Origin: Paludibacteraceae bacterium
GTDB taxonomy: Bacteria; Bacteroidota; Bacteroidia; Bacteroidales; Paludibacteraceae
Reading direction: 5' to 3'
Length of the DNA stretch: 43,412 nt
Assembly (NCBI GenBank): GCA_031553685.1
Contig: JAVBLE010000033.1
Location: 1 to 43,412 of the forward strand
Shown: positions 1,820-43,412 of the stretch, piece by piece
How positions within the stretch are numbered: the first letter of the stretch is position 1
Layout of the letters: each line of letters begins with the position of its first letter
The notes under the pieces: model-generated
Told to the model about the DNA's origin: nothing
What the model saw: only the letters and a program-made list of their open reading frames with translations
Database searches by the model: none
Translations under genes and position numbers: made by a program

Positions 1820-2395
1820 ATGTCATATAATTCTAAAACACATAATCGCCGTAGCATTCGGTTGAAGGATTATGATTATTCGCAGGCAGGCTTGTATTTT
1901 GTAACTATTTGTGTACATAACAGGGAATGTTTGTTTGGTGAAATTGCTGATGGACACATAAGCTTGTCGAATATTGGCACTATTGCTGATTTATTATGGT
2001 TTGAAATAAAAAATCATGCGCCTAATGTGGAATTGTGCGAATTTGTTGTGATGCCAAATCATATTCATGGGATTATTGAGATAAAAGACTTACCGTCCGT
2101 AGGGGCGTTGCATGCAACGCCCCTACATGCAACGCATCCACAACCGGACGAACCCTGCAAGCAGAAAAATGAATATATGGCAGCTATTTCGCCCAAAGCA
2201 GGTACACTGTCAACAATTATTCGTTCGTACAAATCGGCGGTATCAAGGCACGCTCATCGTTTAGGTTACATATTTGCATGGCAACGCAGCTTTCACGAAC
2301 ACATTATTCGAGATAATAATGACCATGCGCGTATTGCCGAATATATCAAAAACAATCCTGACATGTGGACAGATGATTGTTTTTACAAAGAATAA
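1820..2395 (+). CDS. REP-associated tyrosine transposase (RAYT, IS200/IS605-like Y1 HUH transposase)
   Basis: HUH motif HIHGII, catalytic Tyr region SYKSAVS, WQRSFHEHIIRD and YIKNNP tail. REP palindromes lie just upstream (1769) and downstream (2441). A full REP copy also lies inside the ORF at 2097-2139, translated as VGALHATPLHATH. Confidence 0.75.
   Translation: MSYNSKTHNRRSIRLKDYDYSQAGLYFVTICVHNRECLFGEIADGHISLSNIGTIADLLWFEIKNHAPNVELCEFVVMPNHIHGIIEIKDLPSVGALHATPLHATHPQPDEPCKQKNEYMAAISPKAGTLSTIIRSYKSAVSRHAHRLGYIFAWQRSFHEHIIRDNNDHARIAEYIKNNPDMWTDDCFYKE
2097..2139. repeat. REP element copy 2 (core plus ATGCAACGC extension), located inside the RAYT coding sequence in-frame
   Basis: ccgtaggggcgttgcatgcaacgcccctacatgcaacgcatcc; the ORF stays open across it. 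Confidence 0.8.
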
Positions 2396-5250: not shown

Positions 5251-5294
5251 CCGTAGTAGGAGCGTTGCATGCAACGCCCCTACAATGCATCTCC
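5251..5294. repeat. REP element copy 4 (slightly diverged: CCGTAGTAGGAGCGTTGCATGCAACGCCCCTACAATGCATCTCC)
   Basis: Read directly; embedded in the GC-rich structured island 4980-5425. Confidence 0.75.
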
Positions 5295-6550: not shown

Positions 6551-6819
6551 TAACCTCAGTTCGATTAATCAAAAATTTACACAGAGAAATATTTTACTTT
6601 GATCAAAACCTTGTTTTTTAGATTGCACTTAGGCTAACTCAAGCTTTCAAAAGAGAAACACGGAGCTACACAGAGTGAAAAATCAAAGATTTTTCTCCTC
6701 TCTGTAGCTCTCTGTGAAGCTCGAATGCAATTTTCAAGAAAAAACCTCAGGTTAAAAACCAATCACAAGGTTTGAGATTACATTTTCTCTGTGTAAAATA
6801 ATAATCGAACTGAGGTTAT
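6551..6819. mobile_element. MITE-like long-hairpin element with about 38-bp imperfect terminal inverted repeats (TAACCTCAGTTCGATTA...TTTACACAGAGAAA)
   Basis: The left end 6551-6590 is the reverse complement of the right end 6781-6819. Nested inner inverted repeats (AAAACCTTG/CAAGGTTT; CTACACAGAG/CTCTCTGTAG) surround a GAAAAATCAAAGATTTTTC hairpin. A related copy is at 32295-32434. Confidence 0.5.
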
Positions 6820-6830
6820 TAAAATGAAAA

Positions 6831-7259
6831 TTAGGGCAAACGCACGAAATTTGCCCTAAAGTAAAAAACAGTCAGGGCTTCACTTTGAGTGAATCCCTGA
6901 CTTATCAAGAAATTACGGTTTATTCTCGGTGTTTTATGGTCTCGGATTTTCCGAATAGGAAAAACCTTGTTGTTTTTTGTTTTCGGAAATTCCGAACGGG
7001 CAAAACCTTGCACTTTTATAGTTTCGGAAATTCCGAACGGGCAAAAGCTTGTGTTTTTATCCTCTCGGTATTTCCGAATGAGCAAATACTCTCGCTTTTA
7101 TGCCTTCGGAATTTCCGAATGAATAAAAGCTCGGTGTTTTACGCTTCCGGAATTTCCGGATGGATTTTTACTGCTTATTTTGGCTTTTCGGAATTTCTTT
7201 TTATTGTCGGAGTAAAACTCCTTTTGAGTAAATTAGCAAATTTCGTGCGTTTGCCCTAA
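6831..7259. repeat. Composite element: 24-bp terminal inverted repeats (TTAGGGCAAACGCACGAAATTTGC) enclosing a terminator-like hairpin and seven tandem repeats of about 41 bp, each with a TTCGGAAATTCCGAA-type palindrome
   Basis: 6831-6854 is the reverse complement of 7236-7259. The array is at 6934-7222 (units start TTTTA..., end ...AAAACCTTG). Unit 6 has the compensatory variant TCCGGAATTTCCGGA. Confidence 0.6.
6871..6901. repeat. Hairpin GTCAGGGCTTCACTTTGAGTGAATCCCTGAC (second copy in opposite orientation at 41710-41740)
   Basis: 12-bp stem; flanked by an A/T run. On the minus strand it reads hairpin then TGTTTTTT. Confidence 0.5.
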
Positions 7260-17918: not shown

Positions 17919-18272
17919 CATAACCGTGTGCAAGCATAGCGCAGCTTACAGAAACAGAATGAGAACTGTGCATCTGCCTGAAAGGCAGAACTTGCAGAAA
18001 GAAAATCCTGCCTTTCAGGCAGATGTAATGTTTATTGCATTGATACCACAGGTCGTTGACCCAATGTCATCAACTTAAGGATTAAATTGAGAAAGACTAC
18101 CGTCATGTCGACCTTGTGGAGACATCGCATAAGACTGAGAAATTGCAAATATAAGCTGACAATGCCTACTCATGCGATGTCTCCACGACGCTCCTCGTAT
18201 CCTCGTCGCTTTGGTCGACATGACGAAAGGCTTAAGTTGATGACATTGGGTCGTTGACCTGCGGTTATGAAA
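17916..18272. repeat. 357-bp nested imperfect palindrome (long-hairpin element)
   Basis: Outer inverted repeat TTTCATAACCG/CGGTTATGAAA. 31-bp arms 18049-18079 / 18231-18261. Inner arms 18101-18113 / 18214-18225 and 18116-18130 / 18172-18186. A separate 18-bp-stem hairpin lies at 17971-18027. Confidence 0.55.
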
Positions 18273-25048: not shown

Positions 25049-25162
25049 GTAGTTTTTTGTAGGTTCAAGGTTAAAATATTTTGTCGATTCAAAAACTTGT
25101 CGTACATTTGTGGTATAAAATAAAAGCGGCTAAATGACTATTTCGGACACGGCGAGGGTTGT

Positions 25163-25627
25163 TTAGCCGTTTTCTATTGCAGTAATACAATATTGTATCT
25201 TTTGTCCGCTACCACGCAGCTCGCCTACGGTCAATTTTATCTTCCCAAATCCGATTTTTTCATACTCCATCACAAATATTTTTGAGAATCGCGATTGGTT
25301 TTTCACATTTGGCTTCGGTTCTTCGGCAATGAACTCTCCTTTATTATCTTTGGGAACAAGTGCATTTTCTATCACTTCGGACAAAAATGTAACTGCTATA
25401 GTTGATTGATAATTCAAAGATGCATGCCCTGCTGTTTCTTCTACCGACAGAAAACGCACATAGATAAGTGAATCTAAAGATTTATTGTAAAGATGTTTTT
25501 CTGGATTTGCCTCAATCCATTTTCCGTAAAAGTCAATGATAAATTGTTTTCGTTGTTTTTTGTCTTCCTTTGTAATTCCTGTAGCAATACCGGTTGCATC
25601 CAATTTCATAGTTTTTGATTTGTTCAT
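25163..25627 (-). CDS. Hypothetical protein (154 aa), possibly the last gene of the island operon
   Basis: ORF only; no motif recognised. A terminator-like hairpin (CGGCTAAA...TTTAGCCG) lies downstream at about 25100-25160. Confidence 0.45.
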   Translation of the reverse strand: MNKSKTMKLDATGIATGITKEDKKQRKQFIIDFYGKWIEANPEKHLYNKSLDSLIYVRFLSVEETAGHASLNYQSTIAVTFLSEVIENALVPKDNKGEFIAEEPKPNVKNQSRFSKIFVMEYEKIGFGKIKLTVGELRGSGQKIQYCITAIENG

Positions 25628-25743
25628 TTTCCACTCACAAAGTTACTGTTTCCATCAAAAAAACAAAATGAAGCAAATCTTAAAGTTTGGTTGGTTTTAA
25701 ATCATTTTTTTATTTACTACTGTGTCTAAATCTTAATTCAATA

Positions 25744-27417
25744 TTATAACAACTCTATTATTTTCTTAATAGCATCAAATAGCTTTACAACTCCATCCTT
25801 TATGTAAATATCATGATTAAGATACTGTCCATTATTTTTCTCATCCAAGATCCTTTTATCTGTATGAACAAAACCATTTCGTTTCCGGATTAATCGATAT
25901 ACTTCTTGTACAAATTTACCATCAGTCTGATTTAATTCTTGAAAATACAAACCTGCAAATTTTTGCCATTCGGGAGGTCTATCATTTGTGATTTTGGTAT
26001 TAGTATTTATATATTTTTCTTCATTCCATTCCCAATCAAGCAATAAATCCTTGTTGCATATTTCCCATGTTTTGTCTTGTGAATTGTATTGGATTAAATG
26101 TTTATTCACAAGTTCAATAACCATACAAAGTGTAATGTAAGAATAGGCAAACTGTGTCTTAGTTTTTGTAACTAAAATCATATCCCAAAATAATTGAAGT
26201 TGAGTTTTTAATTCTGATTTAAAATTAAAGGGATAGGTAAAACAATCAATTCGCTTTATTATTTCTTGGTAAGAAATATATAAAGTTTTAAGAAAGTTTC
26301 TCTCAAAGCAGTTTTTTACATCTTCTTTGAAGCGTAAATAATTTTGTTCTGAGAACTCATTAGAAAATCCAAATTCTGGTGACTCTTTCATGTAATAGCC
26401 ATCTGCACCAGCATCTAATAGAGCTTTCAAATTCCAAACCTTATTGGAGGCGGTGAAGATTATTGCTTGATAACCTTGATTAAGGGATTTGATTTTTTGT
26501 AAAACTTTCATTCCCGAGAAATCCTCTGGTTTCAATGTTTTATCTTCTTCTATTCCATTCAGGCGCAAATCTATCAAGTACAAATCAAAAGGTGTATTTT
26601 CAATCAAATTTTTACTTTCAACAGAAAGGTTATTATAATCGTTTACTTTTTCTTTGATAACAACAAAATCTTCAGTTGCTGAGGTTTTAAATACTTTTCG
26701 TAAAACTATTTCCCAGCCTTTATCAGCCTCATCATCAATTAATAAAACCTTTTTATTTGTGGCATTAATTTTATTTGGGTTTCCTACAGGGATTTTATCA
26801 ATAATTTTCAATAACGGAGGATTATGTTTTGATCTATCATAATTTAGTGCTGATATGTATTTAAAATATAACTTTGTTTTATCTTTTTCAAAGTTATTAT
26901 TTCCAAATAATGCGTTAGCATTGGCAGCCTTGTCCATACTATGTGCACCCCAAACATTTGCTAAAGAATGTCTTCCAGTAACTTCATCAGGTAGAATTTT
27001 TATAATATTGAGAAAGCCCATTTTATATTCATCAATAAGAATACCGTTATTCGCGGATATTTCAATTCCCATTTTATCAAAATCAGAGAAACCAATACCT
27101 TTTGTTGCAAGAATTTGACTCCAAATCTTTGTATCAATCATTATTGATTTTAATGAAGATATGCTTGCAAATAATATTGGCAACAAAGCTTTTTCTTTTA
27201 AATATTCGATAGAAAGCCTTATGTGTAACCCAATTTTTAAAGACAGAATTGAATCATTAGGAATCTCAATGATCAATTTATCTATTTCATTTTTGTTAAA
27301 AATCGAAATTAACCAATTATGAATTTCATAATCATTTGTCAAGTTTGGAATTTCAATAAAATTGAATCCAGATTCCTTTGCAGTATTACTATTACCAAGT
27401 ATAAATATTTTCTCCAT
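25744..27417 (-). CDS. Response-regulator receiver (REC) domain protein with C-terminal HEPN-like (RNxxxH) domain
   Basis: The REC signature KKVLLIDDEAD...DLYLIDLRLNG...AIIFTASNKVWNLKALLDAGADGYYMK falls at about aa 213-330. The C-terminus has ...VYRLIRKRNGFVHTDKRILDE, matching the Rx4-6H motif (here R-N-xxx-H). The N-terminal roughly 210 aa are unassigned. The start overlaps the upstream gene by 26 nt. Confidence 0.6.
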   Translation of the reverse strand: MEKIFILGNSNTAKESGFNFIEIPNLTNDYEIHNWLISIFNKNEIDKLIIEIPNDSILSLKIGLHIRLSIEYLKEKALLPILFASISSLKSIMIDTKIWSQILATKGIGFSDFDKMGIEISANNGILIDEYKMGFLNIIKILPDEVTGRHSLANVWGAHSMDKAANANALFGNNNFEKDKTKLYFKYISALNYDRSKHNPPLLKIIDKIPVGNPNKINATNKKVLLIDDEADKGWEIVLRKVFKTSATEDFVVIKEKVNDYNNLSVESKNLIENTPFDLYLIDLRLNGIEEDKTLKPEDFSGMKVLQKIKSLNQGYQAIIFTASNKVWNLKALLDAGADGYYMKESPEFGFSNEFSEQNYLRFKEDVKNCFERNFLKTLYISYQEIIKRIDCFTYPFNFKSELKTQLQLFWDMILVTKTKTQFAYSYITLCMVIELVNKHLIQYNSQDKTWEICNKDLLLDWEWNEEKYINTNTKITNDRPPEWQKFAGLYFQELNQTDGKFVQEVYRLIRKRNGFVHTDKRILDEKNNGQYLNHDIYIKDGVVKLFDAIKKIIELL

Positions 27418-28102
27418 ACTGTAAATAACTTTCTATTATAGATTGTATTTTCTCTCTAAATTCACTTATTGTTACCGGATTTTTCTCTAAATCATCTAAA
27501 AAAACTTCGTAACTAATATTTGAAAACGATAATTTGATAAATTCCTGAAATTGCTTTGGCAAATTCTTCAAATCCAATTTATCGGTGTTCTTCTGTGAGA
27601 TAATAGCTTCCAACACAATATTTCCAATATTGCGCACTTCTTTTGCTTGAAAATTCTTTCCCCAAGCTAAAATTTGTAACTCAATTTCTCCTGTATTTTT
27701 ATAGTATTCTACAAAAACTTTCAGATGTTCATAGAAAAGGTTCTTTTTTATTCCTCGGATAAAATGTGGATTTTCTACTTCTGGTTCTCCCATATTGTTA
27801 CTAAACAATACCAAAGGAATTTTATCTCCAAAATCTGCAATTTCTTCCTTAATCTTTCTAACATTGCTTGTAGAACCAGATAAAAATCCTTTTTCCACAT
27901 CCCAATCTTCGGTCGTTATGTGCAAAAGAATACATTTCGCATTTTGAAGAAATTTCAAATGTAAAATATCATTTGCCTTTTCACGCTTTTCAATTCGTTC
28001 CACAGAAGTAAGATATCCATTAAAAGTACCATCTTCTATAAAGTTAATATTGTATTGATTCTGACGCTGGCTATTTTGATTATCGTCAATTAAGTAAATC
28101 AT
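27392..28102 (-). CDS. Pseudo-receiver (REC-like) domain protein plus helical C-terminal domain (hypothetical)
   Basis: MIYLIDDNQ..., ...CILLHITTEDWD..., IPLVLFSNN..., IRGIKK resembles the REC beta1/beta3/beta4/beta5 pattern with a degenerate acceptor site. Its ATG overlaps the stop of the upstream gene (TAATG). Confidence 0.45.
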   Translation of the reverse strand: MIYLIDDNQNSQRQNQYNINFIEDGTFNGYLTSVERIEKREKANDILHLKFLQNAKCILLHITTEDWDVEKGFLSGSTSNVRKIKEEIADFGDKIPLVLFSNNMGEPEVENPHFIRGIKKNLFYEHLKVFVEYYKNTGEIELQILAWGKNFQAKEVRNIGNIVLEAIISQKNTDKLDLKNLPKQFQEFIKLSFSNISYEVFLDDLEKNPVTISEFREKIQSIIESYLQYGENIYTW

Positions 28103-29790
28103 TATTGATAATAAAATGTAAGTATATGTGTAAAGCCAATTACTTCCGAAGCCTTTATTTCTTCTTGTTCTATAGTTCCTTTTTCGCGAAGAATATTAAT
28201 TTTTATAGGCTTGTCATCAATTTTAGTAATAACTGACCAATGGCAATATCCTTGAAGGTGTTCTGCTATTTTACCCATATTGCCCTTGTCTAATGATAGC
28301 CATTCTTTTATTAAAATATCCGCATCTTTGGTTGGATAAGAATTGTGGTGTGTAATAATAACTTGACTTACAAAAAAGTCGTCATCTGTAGTGCGTTTGT
28401 ATTCAACAGATATTTGCCTTTTGTCAGGTGTATTACTACGCTTTTGTATTTCTTCAAAAATTGTTTCCAAAGCCGCTTTAAATTCACCTACATGTGTGTA
28501 GAAATCGGCTTTTGACAATTTCATTGTTTTTATATCAAAAGTGTTTTCAGAAAACACTTTATTGATAAGTGTTTCTAAATTAGGTGATTCAATACGGGTA
28601 GTTCGTCTAAAATCTTTTATGACTTCTGCAAATTGAGTATGTCTTATTGGATGCAATTTATTGCTTTTCGTTTCTTTCCATTCCGCAGATGACCATGCAT
28701 TTGTAATTTCTTTGGCATTGTATTGATTGTTAAAAATAGTCAATTTTGATTTTTGCTCAAATGCAAATTGAGTCAATAAGTCTTTTAAAGTTTTGGGTAT
28801 TTCTAGTTGATCAAAACTTTCGGTACAAACTTTTCTTGCTTGTGCTAAAAATGAATCCATATCAAAATCACCGTTTTCGTCAAAATCGTGTGTTAGGTAT
28901 TTCAATCCATCACGCTGATTGAATAGAGACATAAATTGAGCTACATCTTTAGGATTGCCTTTTTCTCCACGCATAATGGCTTTCTTGAATTGTAGCTCTT
29001 CAATTTCTTTCTCAAGATTGGCTATATCCTGCTTAAATTCGTCTATCTGTGTTTCTAATTTCAATATTTGTTCATCTATCTGTTCATATTTACTTTCATC
29101 TTGTAGCATTTCTTCTTTGATTGGAAGAATTCTGCTAAACCTGCTCCATTCACGAGCATTCTTATAGGCTCCTAAACTTGATTCTGGAACATACAAAGGA
29201 AAGTTATAAAAATGATATGATTTGTCATTTTTACGAAATGTTTCAGAAGATATAATTTGTGGAGTACTTCTTCTATTAATAATATATGCAAGATTCGCAT
29301 TGTTATAAAACAAGTTTTTACCAAGTGATTCTACGCTTTCAGGTATTGTAATAGTTGTCAGAGAAACACAACCCCAAAAAGCACCTTCGCCAATTTTTAT
29401 AATACTATTAGGCATTTCAACAGTTTTTAATCCAGAACACTTATTGAAGGCATATTCTCCAATAGTTACTACACTATTGGGAATTTCAATGGATTCCAAT
29501 CCCGAACAATTCATAAAAGCACCATACTCAATATTATTAACAGTATTAGAGATAGATACAGATGTTACCCCCATACAATCTAAAAATGCTAATTGCCCAA
29601 TATTTAAAACTCCTTGATTTACTATTATTTTTGTAATATTCTTGCCATACCAAGGCACCTTACTACTATTGAAAAAATCTCTCATTTTCCCTTCTCCACT
29701 AATAGTAAGTGTAGTGCCATTGAGTGAAGCAATTACATCACTTGCATTTTCAGTTCCACAATCCCAAGTTTGTATATTTGTATTTTTCAT
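28102..29790 (-). CDS. BspA-type leucine-rich-repeat (LRR_5) protein with central coiled coil and an unassigned roughly 300-aa C-terminal domain
   Basis: ATG at 29790 (MKNTNIQTW). Repeats IEIPNSVVTIGEYAFNKCSGLKTVEMPNSIIKIGEGAFWGCVSL. Coiled coil YEQIDEQILKLETQIDEFKQDIANLEKEIEELQ. The TTG-started extension to 29835 is unlikely. Confidence 0.65.
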   Translation of the reverse strand: MKNTNIQTWDCGTENASDVIASLNGTTLTISGEGKMRDFFNSSKVPWYGKNITKIIVNQGVLNIGQLAFLDCMGVTSVSISNTVNNIEYGAFMNCSGLESIEIPNSVVTIGEYAFNKCSGLKTVEMPNSIIKIGEGAFWGCVSLTTITIPESVESLGKNLFYNNANLAYIINRRSTPQIISSETFRKNDKSYHFYNFPLYVPESSLGAYKNAREWSRFSRILPIKEEMLQDESKYEQIDEQILKLETQIDEFKQDIANLEKEIEELQFKKAIMRGEKGNPKDVAQFMSLFNQRDGLKYLTHDFDENGDFDMDSFLAQARKVCTESFDQLEIPKTLKDLLTQFAFEQKSKLTIFNNQYNAKEITNAWSSAEWKETKSNKLHPIRHTQFAEVIKDFRRTTRIESPNLETLINKVFSENTFDIKTMKLSKADFYTHVGEFKAALETIFEEIQKRSNTPDKRQISVEYKRTTDDDFFVSQVIITHHNSYPTKDADILIKEWLSLDKGNMGKIAEHLQGYCHWSVITKIDDKPIKINILREKGTIEQEEIKASEVIGFTHILTFYYQ

Positions 29791-29816
29791 AAATAAATTG
29801 GTTTTAAAAGTTTTTA

Positions 29817-29867
29817 TTTTTGTTTCACACTGCAAAACTACAAGTTATCTGTGCATTCTTTCTGCAC
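29817..29867. promoter_or_regulatory. 51-bp direct repeat copy 1 (TTTTTGTTTCACACTGCAAAACTACAAGTTATCTGTGCATTCTTTCTGCAC) in the promoter region of the LRR/REC/HEPN operon
   Basis: 47 of 51 nt identical to 30161-30211. It lies 27-77 nt upstream of the operon ATG. Confidence 0.6.
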
Positions 29868-29892
29868 TGTTATGATTTTATGTAGCGAATCT

Positions 29893-30039
29893 TTAATTTT
29901 CATCGTTATCTTCGTCATAATCATCGTCATCATAATCCCGCTCATTCAAGGAATCCAAATATTTGTCTTCCAAATAATCCATGTAGTCTTGTGGATCAGA
30001 AAATCCATCATCCATCATTAAGTCTGAAAATCCGCTCAT
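29893..30039 (-). CDS. 48-aa highly acidic peptide (MSGFSDLMMDDGFSDPQDYMDYLEDKYLDSLNERDYDDDDYDEDNDEN)
   Basis: Translated by hand from the minus strand. It is below the 60-aa cutoff of the ORF track. It sits between the two 51-bp direct repeats, with a nested hairpin (30060-30135) upstream. Confidence 0.35.
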   Translation of the reverse strand: MSGFSDLMMDDGFSDPQDYMDYLEDKYLDSLNERDYDDDDYDEDNDEN

Positions 30040-30160
30040 AGTGTTTGTTTTTAGAGGTTAAATTAAGCCAACCGGAAGGATTAAAATCAAATCCGCTATG
30101 GGAAAGATTTGATTTTACGCGATTGGCTTAATTAAATGTTTTTATAATTCTTGTTACTTG

Positions 30161-30211
30161 TTTTTGTTTGACACTGCAAAACTACAAACTATCTGTGCAC
30201 TCTTTCTGCAC
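30161..30211. promoter_or_regulatory. 51-bp direct repeat copy 2, 53-103 nt upstream of the WYL regulator gene
   Basis: TTTTTGTTTGACACTGCAAAACTACAAACTATCTGTGCACTCTTTCTGCAC. Confidence 0.6.
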
Positions 30212-30263
30212 AAATGTAAGAAATATTTTGTTCCTTTGTATTGGACTGAAAAATAAATAAATT

Positions 30264-31283
30264 ATGGCAACCAATAAAAATGCACAAGCTCGTTACAGGA
30301 TACTTGATAATTGTTTTCGTAATAATGGGCGAAGATATTTTATCGAAGACTTAATTTCGGAATGTAATAAAAAATTGGCGGAAATTGACCCCGATTCTAA
30401 AGGTATCAGTCGCCGACAGATTTTTGATGACATTGCGTTTATGGAAAGTTCCGAAGGTTGGGAAATTGATTTATTAAGAGAAAAAGATGGGAAAAGGGTG
30501 TATTATTGTTATGCTGATACTTCTTTTTCTATCAACAATATGCCATTGACAGAATCGGATATTAACCGATTACAAACCGCACTGCAAACCTTTTCACAAT
30601 TCAAAGGGATGCCTCAATTTGAATGGATGTATGAGCTTTTGCCCAAACTGAAACGGGGAAGTTCTGATGTGTATTCTCCCGAGATTATGGAATTTGAGAC
30701 AAATCAGGATCTAAAAGGTATTGAACATATCGGTACGCTTTATGATGCCATCCTTTATAAAAAAACATTGAGAGTTGATTATCTGCAATCATTTAAAGAT
30801 AAATTGCAACTAATCATTCATCCATACTATTTGAAACAATACAATACCCGGTGGTTTTTGTTCGGTTGTAATTCTGAAAATGGGAAATATGATTGGAATC
30901 TTCCATTGGACAGAATCATTGATATAAAAGAAATTCATAAACCATATATTCCTAATACGGTAATTGATTGGAATGAATATTTTGATGATATAATAGGAGT
31001 AACAAAACCGGAAAGTTCCGGAATAGAAGAAATCACACTCCATTTTTATGGAAAAACAGGACACTATATTGAGTCAAAGCCAATTCATCCTTACCAAAGG
31101 CACAAATGGTTAAGCTCAGAAATACTTGAGGTTAACTTGGAGTTAATTATTAATTACGAACTAGAACGGCTTATTCTATCGTATGCCGATAGTGTAAAAG
31201 TGATTCAACCTCAGTCTTTAGTTGAACAGATAAAAGAACGCTTATCTAAAGGTGTTTATCAATATGATTCACCTATCTATTAA
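30264..31283 (+). CDS. wHTH-WYL-WCX transcriptional regulator (BrxR/CapW/PafBC-like)
   Basis: WYL domain signature IIHPYYLKQYNTRWFLFGCNSENGKYDWNLPLDRIIDI, preceded by an N-terminal HTH region (YRILDNCFRNNGRRYFIEDLI). It is divergent from the LRR/REC/HEPN operon. Confidence 0.78.
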   Translation: MATNKNAQARYRILDNCFRNNGRRYFIEDLISECNKKLAEIDPDSKGISRRQIFDDIAFMESSEGWEIDLLREKDGKRVYYCYADTSFSINNMPLTESDINRLQTALQTFSQFKGMPQFEWMYELLPKLKRGSSDVYSPEIMEFETNQDLKGIEHIGTLYDAILYKKTLRVDYLQSFKDKLQLIIHPYYLKQYNTRWFLFGCNSENGKYDWNLPLDRIIDIKEIHKPYIPNTVIDWNEYFDDIIGVTKPESSGIEEITLHFYGKTGHYIESKPIHPYQRHKWLSSEILEVNLELIINYELERLILSYADSVKVIQPQSLVEQIKERLSKGVYQYDSPIY

Positions 31284-31302
31284 ATTAGCATTCCATAGTT
31301 GC

Positions 31303-31329
31303 AGTTATTCGGATTTTCCGAACAACTGA
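31303..31329 (+). terminator. Hairpin CAGTTATTCGGATTTTCCGAACAACTG 20 nt after the WYL gene stop
   Basis: Same TTCGGAwwTTCCGAA palindrome type as the tandem array at 6934-7222. Confidence 0.45.
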
Positions 31330-31501
31330 CAGTTCATTCAATTTTCTTCAAAAAATTATTTTGACAAATACTTACCATGCTCTTATTGTTTTGTGCTTTT
31401 TTAGGTATACATGTCAAAAAAGGTTGCTAAAACTAATCTTTAACGCCATTGCAAAAGCAGTTTCAGTTTTATAAATTGAAACCGTTTTCAATTTTATTAA
31501 T

Positions 31502-32148
31502 ATGAATAAAAAAAATGCTGGGTTTGTGGTAGTTCCTCTGTCATCAAATGGGGAACTCGTTGTGGAAAACAACGGTTTAAATGTAAAGAATGCGATGCTC
31601 TGACAACATGGACAAACAAAGGAGTTTCATCATCTAATCGTTTTATATGGTTTCGCCGTTGGATTGTAGGGAAACAAACTTTTCCCGAATTAGTTTCTCA
31701 AAGCGGTTATAGAGTACAGATGTGTCAATTCCATCAAATAAAGATTATTCAGCGTTATTTAACAAAGAAGCCTGATTTACAGGCAGGCAAAGAGTTGTTA
31801 GAACTTGTCAAGTTATTGACTCAAACGGATAAAGAAAGTTTTCTTCTCAGCTTTGCTTGCTGGCATGAGAAATGGGATGAATTTTTGCGAGAACGCTCAA
31901 AGGACAGGCTAACTGGAAAGACTCATTATATTCATAAAAGATTGCGAAGTGCCTATTTGAGTTTAAAACATAATATGCCTTATTTGTGGACTTGGTCTGA
32001 TTATATTCAGATAGGAATACCCAATACCAATAATGTTTTGGAAGGGAAGTTTGCCGATTTAAAAACCAAATTGAGGAATCATAACGGACTATCCAAAAGA
32101 ACTCGTGAGGTCTTTATTGATCACTACTTTAAACAAACATTCCGTTAA
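31502..32148 (+). mobile_element. IS1595/IS1016-like transposase gene with a frameshift in an A8 run (probable pseudogene or slippage site)
   Basis: ATG at 31502 (MNKK) is in frame 2. Immediately after the A8 run (31508-31515), frame 1 encodes the zinc ribbon CWVCGSSSVIKWGTRCGKQRFKCKECD, continuing into the 31720..32148 ORF (...NVLEGKFADLKTKLRNHNGLSKRTREVF...). One extra A would fuse the frames. Confidence 0.6.
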
Positions 32149-32186
32149 ACTCTCGGTGGAATATTCCACCGAGAGTTTAACGGAAT
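32139..32186. repeat. 48-bp perfect palindrome (ATTCCGTTAAACTCTCGGTGGAAT | ATTCCACCGAGAGTTTAACGGAAT) spanning the transposase stop codon, followed by two 22-bp direct repeats (32188-32209, 32229-32250)
   Basis: Read directly. Confidence 0.8.
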
Positions 32187-32294
32187 CTCATCCTCACTTT
32201 TGAACATTAGTGTAAATCAGGTGCGTTTTCATCCTCACTTTTGAACATTAAACCGCCTTTTTACATTACTTTTGAAGAATATTGAAAACTGGAA

Positions 32295-37695: not shown

Positions 37696-38397
37696 ATGTT
37701 GGTTAAAATATCAGATATCAACCTATACTATCAAATAAGCGGTTCCGGAGAGCCGCTTATTTTGCTTCATGGCAATGGTGAAGACTCGTTTATCTTTGAA
37801 AAACAGATTGAATATTTTTCAAAGAAATATCAGGTAATAGCCATTGACACCCGTGCTCATGGGCAAACGGAACGAGGCGCTAAACCCTTCACTTTCGATA
37901 CCTTTGCCGACGATGTAATTGGCTTAATGGATTCGTTGCAAATAGAAAAAGCCCATATATTAGGCTTTTCGGATGGAGGAAACACAGCGTTGCATATTGC
38001 GTTGAAATATCCGCAGCGGATAAAGTCGCTTATCCTTGTTGGCGCCAATCTTTTCCTGTCAGGAATGAAATTCACAATTCGAACAATTATTTCACTCAAT
38101 TACCTTTGGCTTTGCGTTAGTTCACTTTTCAATCAAGAAATAAAACAAAAGAAAGAAATTTGGTCACTCATGGTTTTTCAACCACAACTCTCGTTTCGGC
38201 AAATATCAGCCATACAAAATCCCACCTTAATTTTAGTTGGTGAGCACGATATGATAAAAGAAAGCCACAGCCGGAAAATGGCTGCGGCAATGCCCAATGC
38301 TCAACTCCAAATCTTGTCTGATGCGAATCATTTTTTACTGTTCGAGCAGACAGAAAGGGCGAATGGATTGATTGATAATTTTTTGTGTTTGCAGTAG
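37696..38397 (+). CDS. Alpha/beta hydrolase fold protein
   Basis: LILLHGNGEDSF, nucleophile elbow GFSDGG, and a C-terminal His region. Confidence 0.72.
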   Translation: MLVKISDINLYYQISGSGEPLILLHGNGEDSFIFEKQIEYFSKKYQVIAIDTRAHGQTERGAKPFTFDTFADDVIGLMDSLQIEKAHILGFSDGGNTALHIALKYPQRIKSLILVGANLFLSGMKFTIRTIISLNYLWLCVSSLFNQEIKQKKEIWSLMVFQPQLSFRQISAIQNPTLILVGEHDMIKESHSRKMAAAMPNAQLQILSDANHFLLFEQTERANGLIDNFLCLQ

Positions 38398-38425
38398 GGA
38401 CAAGTCGCGACTTGTCCTTACCATA

Positions 38426-39956: not shown

Positions 39957-40054
39957 ACCTACAATTCTTATCACACAAAGGGAAGCAAAACCGTAGTTAG
40001 CCCCTCTCCTGTGGAGAGGGGTTGGGGAGAGGTGGCTGCGGGATGTCGCTACAA

Positions 40055-40183
40055 TAGCGAAGCATCACGAACACCAAAAATAATTATCTGTGAGTAATAG
40101 CGAAGCATCACGAACACCAAAAATAATTATCTGTGAGTAATAGCGAAGCATCACGAACACCAAAAATAATTATCTGTGAGTAA
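40055..40183. repeat. Perfect 3 x 43-bp tandem repeat (TAGCGAAGCATCACGAACACCAAAAATAATTATCTGTGAGTAA)
   Basis: Read directly; units at 40055, 40098 and 40141. Confidence 0.9.
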
Positions 40184-40400
40184 TCCCTCACGCAACGCGG
40201 ATAACCGGCAGTTATCCCGTTGAAGAACAGGTGCAGCGCACCGTAATATAAGTGTGTCGGTACTCTGTACCTCAATTTCTTATGCTGATATAATAGCTAC
40301 AAAGATTGCGGTGCTCTGCACCTGAATGACAAACAATAAAACAACTTTAAATAAAATCACTCCCTTTAACCAAAAACGGGGAGGGGTTAATTAAAACAAC

Positions 40401-41669: not shown

Positions 41670-41709
41670 AGAGTTTTTGGTGTTTTACCGGTAATGAAAA
41701 AAATGCTAA

Positions 41710-41740
41710 GTCAGGGCTTCACTCAAAGTGAAGCCCTGAC
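41710..41740 (+). terminator. Hairpin GTCAGGGCTTCACTCAAAGTGAAGCCCTGAC after folC (copy of 6871-6901 in opposite orientation)
   Basis: 12-bp perfect stem, followed by TGTTTAAAAAAAA, which is not a canonical T-run. Confidence 0.45.
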
Positions 41741-41972
41741 TGTTTAAAAAAAACTGTTTTAATTTTATTGATAATTAATAAATATTTTTTACATTTGCGC
41801 ACATTAATTAAGTATTCAAAATATTGAAGCACGCCACACATATTATCTCTTTACCTTGTGTTTTTAACTAAAATAACTTGCACGCTTCACAATCTCTTTA
41901 AACTATACACTTATAAATCTCACAGCATTTTTTATTTGTAAAATTTTAATAACAATTTAAATTATATTCAAA

Positions 41973-42854
41973 ATGACAAAAGACAATTTCTTTAGAATTT
42001 GGTTGCTTATCAGTTTAGGTTTCGTATGCGCAGCATTTACCGCTTGTAAAGATGATGAAACTATAGTAGAAAGTATTAGTTTAAACAAAAGCACGATGGA
42101 GCTTTCTATCGGTGAGTTTGAAACTTTGGTGGCTTCTGTTTTGCCTACCGATGCTACAGACAAAACCGTAACATGGAGTAGCAAGAATGCCAATGCAACT
42201 GTAGATGCCACTGGTAAAGTAACAGCCATAGCCGCAGGCACAGCTGTAATTACTGCTCAGGCAGGTGGTAAAAGTGCTACCTGTACTGTTACGATAATCG
42301 ATCCTGCGCTATTAAATGATGCTGGTGCAGTCATAAACGGTGTGCGCTGGGCAACACGCAATGTAGATGCTGTTGGTACTTTTGCTGCTACCGCTGAAAG
42401 CTCCGGTATGTATTTTCAATGGAACCGTAAAAAGGCATGGAGTGGCAAAGTCAACACATCCATTGTAATCAGTACATGGGATGCTACCATATCTGATGGT
42501 ATGAAATGGGAAAAGACTAACGACCCATCTCCTGTCGGTTGGCGCATCCCTACTCCTGCCGAAATCGAGTCTTTGCTTGATGAAACCAAAGTAACGAGAG
42601 CTTGGGACGCCACCCAAAAGGGCTATACATTTACCGATAAAACTACTAATGCCTCCATTTTCCTTTATGCTGCGGGCTACATCAGTAGTGACCTTCGCAT
42701 ACCCGATAATGAATACATACGCGGCTATTATTGGAGTAATACAAGGGCAGATGACTCTAGTGCATACGGTTTGCTCTTTGGTAATAATCCGTATGCAGTC
42801 AGTAGTACACACGGTTGTAAAAATGGTCGGTCAATACGCTGCGTGGCAGAATAA
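41973..42854 (+). CDS. Lipoprotein with Big_2 Ig-like domain and Fibrobacter succinogenes major paralogous (FISUMP) domain
   Basis: Lipobox LGFVCAAFTAC. Big_2 region DKTVTWSSKNANATVDATGKVTAIAAG. FISUMP motifs INGVRWATRNVD, GWRIPTPAEIESL, GYYWSNT and GRSIRCV. Confidence 0.75.
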   Translation: MTKDNFFRIWLLISLGFVCAAFTACKDDETIVESISLNKSTMELSIGEFETLVASVLPTDATDKTVTWSSKNANATVDATGKVTAIAAGTAVITAQAGGKSATCTVTIIDPALLNDAGAVINGVRWATRNVDAVGTFAATAESSGMYFQWNRKKAWSGKVNTSIVISTWDATISDGMKWEKTNDPSPVGWRIPTPAEIESLLDETKVTRAWDATQKGYTFTDKTTNASIFLYAAGYISSDLRIPDNEYIRGYYWSNTRADDSSAYGLLFGNNPYAVSSTHGCKNGRSIRCVAE

Positions 42855-42873
42855 TTTGACTATTTAAAAATGT

Positions 42874-42961
42874 CTGAACCATGATTTTTAAAGATTTATA
42901 GGATTGTCAATACTATAATACTTGGCAATCTTGATAAGCCTACGAAAATCATGGTTCAGAC
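42874..42961. repeat. 88-bp hairpin element (17-bp inverted repeats GTCTGAACCATGATTTT / AAAATCATGGTTCAGAC) preceding tandem array 2
   Basis: Read directly. Confidence 0.5.
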
Positions 42962-42980
42962 TTCTTGCAATATCGGAGCT

Positions 42981-43220
42981 TTTACCCATTCCGCAATGCG
43001 GAAACCCTAAAACCTCAAAGTAAAACCCTTTCGCCGTTAGCGAAGACCTAAAACCCGAAACATTTACCCATTCGCCAATAGCGGAAGCAAAAAAGCACAA
43101 GAATTTACCCCTCCGCTAATGGCGAAAGCATAAAACCTCAAACTTTTACTCCTCCGCCAAAAGCGGAAGAGGAAAACCACAAAGGTTAAACCTTTCGCCA
43201 AAAGCGAAGACGAAAAAGCG
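42981..43220. repeat. Tandem array 2: six units of about 41 bp, each TTTACCC-[CGC-loop-GCG hairpin]-AAAACC
   Basis: Units start at 42981, 43021, 43063, 43104, 43144 and 43186. Hairpins are CCGCAATGCGG, CGCCGTTAGCG, CGCCAATAGCG, CCGCTAATGGCG, CCGCCAAAAGCGG and CGCCAAAAGCG. The architecture parallels array 1 at 6934-7222. Confidence 0.6.
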
Positions 43221-43412
43221 TTACAGTTTAGAAGAAACGGCATTGCATAGCCCTTTGCGTTAGCTTGGAGAATAAAAAATAAAATGATTATCCGCTATTT
43301 TACCCCCAACCCCCTAAAGGGGGCTCGCAATCAACAACAGACTGTTTGTGTTGGGTAAGTCCCCTTTAGGGGATTTAGGGGTGGTTGGAAGCATCTTCTT
43401 AGAAATTAGGGG

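Follow-up and report, generated by a model that had tools for sequence, protein, structure and literature searches.

Two tandem 41-bp hairpin arrays of one unit family in a Paludibacteraceae contig

Our analysis of a 43,412-bp contig from a Paludibacteraceae bacterium, the whole of which served as the window of this study, identified a real, non-coding tandem array of six units with a short hairpin in each unit (array 2), belonging to one unit family with an oppositely oriented array 36 kb away (array 1). In their behaviour, the arrays resemble palindromic repeats of the selfish or structural kind that bacteria are known to carry, and the family itself is undescribed; no described 41-bp Bacteroidales repeat was found in the literature. 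On balance, and with modest confidence, we favour the explanation that array 2 is a lineage-specific palindromic minisatellite, which behaves in a REP/BIME-like manner and gains and loses whole units.

Unit structure and kinship of the two arrays

The arrays and the elements next to them occupy the following positions.

42978–43224, minus strand: array 2, six head-to-tail 41-bp units, recovered by Tandem Repeats Finder (TRF), PWM, covariance model, predicted hairpins and pair counts
43184–43224, 43143–43183, 43102–43142, 43061–43101, 43020–43060 and 42978–43019, minus strand: the single units of array 2
41973–42854: Big_2/Fib_succ_major gene, after whose stop codon the array 2 region begins
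42872–42961: 90-bp hairpin beside array 2, whose perfect 17-nt arms, GTCTGAACCATGATTTT, are separated by 56 nt
43299–43387: long, imperfect G/C-run hairpin with CCCCCTAAAGGGGG and CCCCTTTAGGGG sub-palindromes, 25 nt from the contig end
6926–7171, plus strand: array 1, six 41-bp units with the core stem TTCGG/CCGAA, recovered by TRF, PWM and covariance model
7172–7212: degenerate seventh unit after array 1
6831–6854, plus strand: perfect 24-nt inverted repeat on either side of array 1, left arm
7236–7259, minus strand: right arm of the same inverted repeat

TRF reported array 2 with a period of 41 at 43050–43206 (3.8 copies, 72% matches, 0% indels) and also with a period of 82 at 43009–43208; array 1 was reported at 6925–7163, with a period of 41 and 5.8 copies. 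The unit consensus of array 2 is yTTGnGnTTTTAnGn-TTCGC-n5-GCGAA-nGGGTAAAAg, in which the 5-bp core stem, TTCGC/GCGAA or TCCGC/GCGGA, keeps a constant position across units. DNA folding likewise placed the predicted hairpin at the identical position in every unit, as a core hairpin of 15–17 nt nested in a 35-nt quasi-palindrome. A tandem hairpin array of six units of about 41 bp each had been proposed in the first-pass annotation, and both TRF and the covariance model confirmed it; the stems quoted at that time (CCGCAATGCGG, CGCCGTTAGCG and CCGCCAAAAGCGG) are all present in the sequence. Reading 3' from the Big_2/Fib_succ_major stop codon, the order is the 17-nt-arm hairpin, the six units, 74 nt, the G/C-run hairpin and a final 25 nt. 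Array 2 and the contig end are 190 bp apart, and a short-read contig from this strain stops within the first unit of the array.

A PWM and a covariance model, both built from the array units, were scanned over the 43-kb window. The covariance model recovered six units per array at 33–51 bits (E 4e-6 to 9e-11), and outside both arrays its best score in the 43 kb was 13.5 bits. Units of array 1 scored 34–43 bits with the PWM and 33–50 bits with the covariance model. When array 2 was compared with array 1 by PWM, it reached 31–38 bits on the minus strand relative to 13–19 bits on the plus strand, and the covariance model gave 35–51 bits on the minus strand and at most 27 bits on the other. The same family and the same 41-bp period had been claimed for both arrays, and the PWM, the covariance model and the pair counts agree with this. 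The same orientation had been claimed as well, but array 2 fits best as the reverse complement of array 1. Since the unit is quasi-palindromic (GTTTTA ... hairpin ... GGGYAAAAC), both strands seem to start with TTTTA and to end with AAAACC. In the sense of array 1, the joint unit reads yTTGnGnTTTTAnGn-TTCSS-five loop bases-SSGAA-nGGGyAAAAC, and in the unit alignment arrays 1 and 2 show conservation of both flanks, the T-run as well as the GGG-A-run. Within an array no unit alternates in orientation, and all six share a strand. Arrays 1 and 2 are therefore one unit family in opposite orientations, comprising 12 units in two arrays within 43 kb, and this, together with the finding that nothing else in the window is alike, argues for a palindromic minisatellite. 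Both arrays are intergenic, and their neighbours are an OMP gene, aconitase and the Big_2 protein.

The GTCTGAACCATGATTTT hairpin begins 18 nt past the Big_2/Fib_succ_major stop codon and folds at −22.7 kcal/mol (DNA; z −7.7), with its arms at 42872–42888 and 42945–42961; it corresponds to the 88-bp hairpin that had been described as preceding array 2, and array 1 has no equivalent of it at its side. The GGGG/CCCC hairpins noted earlier at the end of the window were also recovered, as the G/C-run hairpin, whose arms at 43303–43325 and 43358–43380 are 83% complementary (z −3.5) and which gave spurious miRNA-precursor matches only in Rfam. A hairpin directly 5' of both arrays had been taken as a common feature; this was not upheld, as array 2 is flipped and its hairpin consequently sits 3'. 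Local alignment of the leaders and tails of both arrays in all orientations gave scores of 15–20, relative to shuffle maxima of 25–30. The flanks of the two arrays are thus alike no more than by chance, the apparent hairpin immediately 5' is coincidental, and there is no common element. Judged by these alignments, the hairpins flanking arrays 1 and 2 are unrelated, and both arrays lie in palindrome-rich intergenic spacers.

Array 1 is located within an 870-bp spacer crowded with other palindromic elements, which likewise favours the minisatellite explanation. The 24-nt inverted repeat is private to this array, with 2 copies only in the window. A hairpin with a 15-bp stem (AGTCAGGGCTTCACT ... 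AGTGAAGCCCTGACT) occurs twice, at 6870–6902 before array 1 and at 41709–41741 after the FolC stop codon; its recurrence after FolC indicates an element separate from array 1, probably a terminator-like palindrome of the dispersed kind. A long interrupted inverted repeat (6551–6589 / 6784–6818, with perfect blocks of 17 and 14 nt) encloses about 194 bp between the OMP gene and array 1, and in its layout the segment 6551–6818 resembles a small MITE or a promoter segment that can invert.

Stem covariation and transcript features

When the 12 units of arrays 1 and 2 are aligned together, 95% of the cells of the 5-bp core helix are paired, and in three of the five base pairs both partners have changed; these compensating changes include G-C to C-G and U-A to C-G. 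The covariation score was 0.265, relative to 0.097 ± 0.026 for shuffled alignments, and none of 500 shuffles reached this value. Controls in which the partner was slid by 1–3 columns gave 43–59% pairing. The outer T-run/A-run helix is weaker (73% paired), and the hairpin loops are unconserved between units in the alignment. Covarying stems with conserved flanks, as claimed before, were thus borne out by pair counts, shuffles and slid controls, and the paired core helix with its double-sided changes supports a palindromic minisatellite. The array folds far better than shuffles on both strands (z −5.2 and −4.7). Departures from the stem amount to one G-U versus one C-A, so that neither strand is favoured as RNA.

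At the gathering threshold, Rfam gave 0 matches over the whole window, and in E-value mode it returned sub-threshold miRNA-precursor look-alikes only; no tRNA was found in the array region. The 558-bp array 2 region contains no Bacteroidetes −7 box (TAnnTTTG) on either strand, and 0 intrinsic terminator sites were detected in 42600–43412. The T-run is located 5' of each hairpin, unlike the order in an intrinsic terminator. An own promoter or terminator was rejected on the basis of the missing box and of the lack of a hairpin-plus-T-run in the array 2 region. A coding repeat was also rejected, since 41 is not a multiple of 3 and none of the short mechanical ORFs across the arrays has a Pfam match. 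A phage or plasmid origin was rejected upon 0 blastn matches in phage and plasmid collections; viral contigs gave 1 match among 2.9 million.

Arrays in other genomes and in relatives

We searched a collection of one genome per species with a two-unit pattern (T-run plus YCGS-n5-SCGRA hairpin, twice, about 41 bp apart, with the GGG-A-run flank unused), which pre-selected the CG core and a period of roughly 40–42 bp. The pattern matched 46 loci, relative to fewer than one chance match expected (an estimate under uniform base composition). TRF arrays with a period of 40–43 and 2–15 copies were present at 33 of the 46, with periods mostly of 41–42 bp, where the pattern allowed roughly 40–42 bp only. 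The hosts are mostly Bacteroidales MAGs (Bacteroidaceae RGIG858, Dysgonamonadaceae, UBA3143, Prevotella, Tannerella), and a few loci lie outside Bacteroidales, in Myxococcota, Verrucomicrobiota and Planctomycetota. Several genomes carry 2–7 loci, with RGIG858 arrays on seven contigs and those of Ct408_bin30, STF2_177 and UBA3143 on three each. The arrays are intergenic in all but three cases, in convergent, divergent and co-directional contexts, and their neighbours are unrelated housekeeping genes (dxr/rseP, ispD/HAD, alr-murF, urocanase and others). This excess of loci over chance, their intergenic position next to unrelated neighbours and the presence of several loci per genome point to a palindromic minisatellite.

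Likeness in sequence to the window units was found only in Tannerella L045, whose array reads GTTTCATGA-TTCCGGAAATTCCGGAA-TGGCAAAAC, and in L042, and it was weak (at most 25 bits). On the sequences compared, what is widely shared is the build of the array and not homology. The core palindrome TTCGGAAATTCCGAA is nearly unchanged in three unrelated genomes, namely those of the window, L042 and L045. Arrays of RGIG858 start and stop sharply within a unit and have no common non-repeat termini, and their spacer variants, as judged by eye, seem to differ between arrays; the sharp edges and the array-specific variants suggest amplification in place. We further found adjacent sub-arrays with the same 41–42-bp period and different unit sequences in L015 (1–358), L013 (930–1343) and L048 (4289–4864), a layout which hints that the period may be retained while the sequence is replaced.

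A difference in length was observed between two GTDB species representatives, labelled Bacteroides sp. and Prevotella sp., whose flanks are 98.65% identical over 8 kb.

L031, 2524–3122: array of 14 units of 42 bp
L046, 4860–5374: array of 12 units of 42 bp

The nearest FolC relatives of the window organism are 76% identical, and matches at or below 70% are labelled Paludibacteraceae or Prevotellaceae. In the closest relative, whose aconitase has 89% amino-acid identity, no array is present upstream of aconitase. The FolC loci of relatives at 75–76% identity show a different gene order and no array, and over 73 kb of relatives no covariance-model score exceeded 16 bits. In 618 kb of metagenome contigs picked for an unrelated palindrome, no tandem repeat of period 41/42 was found. 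A conserved regulatory element was rejected, as the aconitase and FolC loci of relatives lack an array. Taken together, the absence at these loci and the two-unit difference in length indicate that the arrays are lineage-specific, unconserved in position and changing by whole units. Along with the lack of such arrays in the 618 kb, this again supports the minisatellite explanation.

Known repeat systems and competing explanations

Like the REP/BIME elements of enterobacteria and pseudomonads, which are present in many copies, the arrays are clusters of short imperfect extragenic palindromes (20–40 bp), which sit between convergent, co-directional or intercistronic genes, are lineage-specific and strain-variable, and keep the stem while the sequence drifts. 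In contrast to REP/BIME, they carry no GTAG/CGTC end tag, they are fixed 41-bp head-to-tail repeats that do not alternate in orientation and are not joined by linker motifs, and the palindrome that accompanies the RAYT of the window is not theirs. The arrays thus resemble REP/BIME in behaviour and are not members of that family. The window holds the following elements of the RAYT type.

1820–2395, plus strand: RAYT-like HUH/Y1 gene (NCBIfam NF047646, E 2e-16, 60 bits at a cut-off of 80)
1771–1798, 2099–2126, 2443–2470 and 5256–5283: perfect 28-bp GTAG palindrome GTAGGGGCGTTGCATGCAACGCCCCTAC

The RAYT-like ORF has a weak Pfam Y1_Tnp match, and its sole PDB match is 4ER8, E. coli TnpArep, with which the HUH and tyrosine regions align. 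GTAGGGGCGTTGCATGCAACGCCCCTAC flanks this gene (1771 and 2443) and also lies in frame inside it (2099). The exact 28-mer occurs in at least 120 metagenome contigs (loci L053–L172) of 34–68% GC, and among the matches listed 29 contigs hold it inside RAYT homologues at the same codon position; these homologues share only 43–50% amino-acid identity, with the palindrome nucleotide-perfect. It is very unlikely that array 2 is a classical REP/BIME cluster made and moved by the transposase at 1820–2395. The gene lies 4.5 kb from array 1, and REP arrays are proposed products of RAYT processing (PMC3733652), but the palindrome that flanks the gene and lies within it is a different one, and in the unit alignment the array units have neither a GTAG/CGTC tag, unlike GTAGGGGCGTTGCATGCAACGCCCCTAC, nor similarity to it. 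With the RAYT tied to another palindrome and the units lacking GTAG, this explanation fails two defining tests. In addition, all units are head-to-tail instead of alternating, and no array with a period of 41/42 bp is present in the 618 kb of GTAGGGGCGTTGCATGCAACGCCCCTAC contigs (among the matches listed), of which 29 encode RAYT homologues. The array unit was rejected as the cognate REP of this RAYT for the same reasons. A second, different GTAG-tagged palindrome (GTAGGGACAAGTCGCG / CGCGACTTGTCCTTAC) is found at 38394–38421, at the end of an alpha/beta-hydrolase gene.

The centromere sopC of the F plasmid consists of 12 tandem 43-bp repeats with a short inverted repeat in each, which are bound by SopB, and it is a single plasmid locus beside sopAB. 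It shares with the present arrays tandem units of about four helical turns and a short dyad-symmetric core in each, whereas here two chromosomal arrays with different cores lie 36 kb apart with no partition genes nearby, and arrays occur at many unrelated loci in other genomes. The intergenic mosaic elements of Neisseria are made of heterogeneous repeat blocks of 50–150 bp separated by dRS3 palindromes, dRS3 being a phage integration target. Intergenic arrays and a palindrome of half-site, spacer and half-site at regular intervals are common to both, but no link to phage integration was seen for the 41-bp arrays. Among described elements of the same order, the BrickBuilt MITE of Porphyromonas gingivalis comes closest; in this MITE, 23-nt units lie between shared 'leader' and 'tail' segments with inverted-repeat ends (PMC4596501). 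It is likewise a spacer-less tandem repeat of Bacteroidales, always intergenic and present in many copies, several per genome in the case of our arrays, and array 1 is likewise bracketed by an inverted repeat. The arrays differ from it in their 41-bp units with a hairpin and in having no shared leader, tail or terminal repeat. A BrickBuilt-type MITE with common ends was rejected, given that the array flanks are unrelated, that the 24-nt repeat occurs only around array 1 and that the RGIG858 arrays lack shared ends.

Our favoured explanation, a palindromic minisatellite, may be pictured as follows. A unit of about 41 bp, with a GC-cored hairpin between a T-run and a GGG-A-run, would be amplified in place head to tail, and the length of the array would change through slippage during replication or through unequal recombination among units, both of which would be favoured by hairpin extrusion on single-stranded DNA. 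New loci may be seeded when one or a few units are transferred, either by an enzyme that recognises hairpins in single-stranded DNA, probably other than the RAYT encoded in the window, or by ectopic recombination. The palindrome would be retained either because it is needed for propagation or because its arms are homogenised by template switching within the hairpin. Effects on the host, if any, would be side effects of stable hairpins, whether in the DNA or in read-through transcripts; examples from enterobacterial REP/BIME are the blocking of 3' exonucleases and the provision of a site for supercoiling or for nucleoid proteins. Several findings count against this explanation. No mobilising enzyme and no signature of transposition (target duplication, shared termini) was found, the RAYT lies beside a different palindrome, and no RAYT was found near the arrays in other genomes. 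The T-run and GGGYAAAAC are conserved in arrays 1 and 2 and weakly in L045, which could reflect a sequence-specific partner, and the near-constant 41–42 bp, about four helical turns, is not predicted by a purely selfish model, although the search pattern allowed only about 40–42 bp.

These last features also bear on two explanations that invoke a protein. The units may be phased binding sites on duplex DNA, in which the dyad TTCSS-n5-SSGAA with its flanks is presented on one face of the helix by the 41-bp spacing and a dimeric protein coats or wraps the array. The strict 41-bp period with no indels in array 2, the dominance of 41–42 periods among the recovered arrays, the near-constancy of TTCGGAAATTCCGAA in the window, L042 and L045, and the flanks conserved in both arrays are in agreement with such sites. 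We nevertheless consider them unlikely, because the compensating changes keep pairing and not base identity, which a protein that reads sequence would not select, and because the half-sites differ between two arrays of one genome. Moreover, the neighbours are unrelated, no DNA-binding or partition gene recurs beside the arrays, and part of the preference in period comes from the search pattern itself. It is similarly doubtful that the arrays represent an undescribed class of helix-phased 41–42-bp hairpin arrays, in Bacteroidales and sporadically in other phyla, that a dedicated partner reads through period and flanks. Such a partner could be a one-face DNA-binding or nucleoid protein, or a hairpin-specific single-strand DNA enzyme, other than a RAYT, that seeds and amplifies units; in that case the arrays would be a functional chromosomal landmark or a new mobile repeat system and not inert minisatellites.

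A structured RNA, transcribed alone or in a UTR or intercistronic region, in which the row of hairpins serves as scaffold, protein sponge, or message stabiliser or insulator, also appears improbable. It would account for the good folding of both strands and for the covarying stem, and the L045 array, lying between the co-directional dxr and rseP, is probably co-transcribed with them. However, no Rfam family fits, the array 2 region has neither a TAnnTTTG box nor an intrinsic terminator, the loops are unconserved and the balance of G-U and C-A shows no strand bias. The arrays also lie in either orientation relative to flanking genes and are missing from close relatives. Hardly credible, finally, is a degenerate or spacer-less CRISPR array or an artefact of assembly. 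The regularly spaced, partly palindromic element of about 35 nt starts with GTTTTA and ends with AAAAC, and the position of array 2 close to the contig end, with the same-strain short-read contig breaking in its first unit, could suggest a fault of assembly. But CRISPR arrays, which share regularly spaced, partly palindromic repeats with ours, have unique spacers between near-identical repeats; here the entire 41-bp period repeats at about 72% identity, so it is not a CRISPR array, and no cas-like domain was seen among the annotated ORFs of the window. The units differ from one another, unlike those of a collapse or duplication artefact, and array 1, of the same family, sits mid-contig.

If the minisatellite explanation is true, one more family of extragenic palindromic repeats is added, now in uncultured Bacteroidales, and this family spreads to new loci with neither a GTAG tag nor shared terminal repeats. 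The array of 41-bp units breaks short-read assemblies, since array 2 lies at or near the point where both this contig and another assembly of the strain stop. It is also liable to be mistaken for a CRISPR array or a small RNA. Such arrays also supply variable-number markers for strain typing.

Other repeats and a low-GC island were observed in the contig. Upstream of FolC, at 40053–40184, lies a perfect 43-bp tandem repeat (3.1 copies, 100% identity) that shows no obvious hairpin and no relation to the 41-bp family. Nested inverted repeats with arms of 35, 30, 21 and 18 nt span about 300 nt at 17964–18265, in the spacer before an SPFH gene, with no Rfam match, and a perfect 48-bp palindrome with 24-nt arms and no spacer is located at 32139–32186, at the end of the ORF 31720–32148. 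The low-GC island at 25100–32200 (28–34% relative to about 43% elsewhere) encodes iREC/receiver, 'HisKin-conflict' plus BspA-type LRR, and WYL-WCX proteins, and looks like a horizontally acquired conflict/defence module. At the start of the contig, 65–307 encodes a C-terminal fragment of a Mutator/IS256-family transposase, and thus both contig ends fall in repeated DNA.
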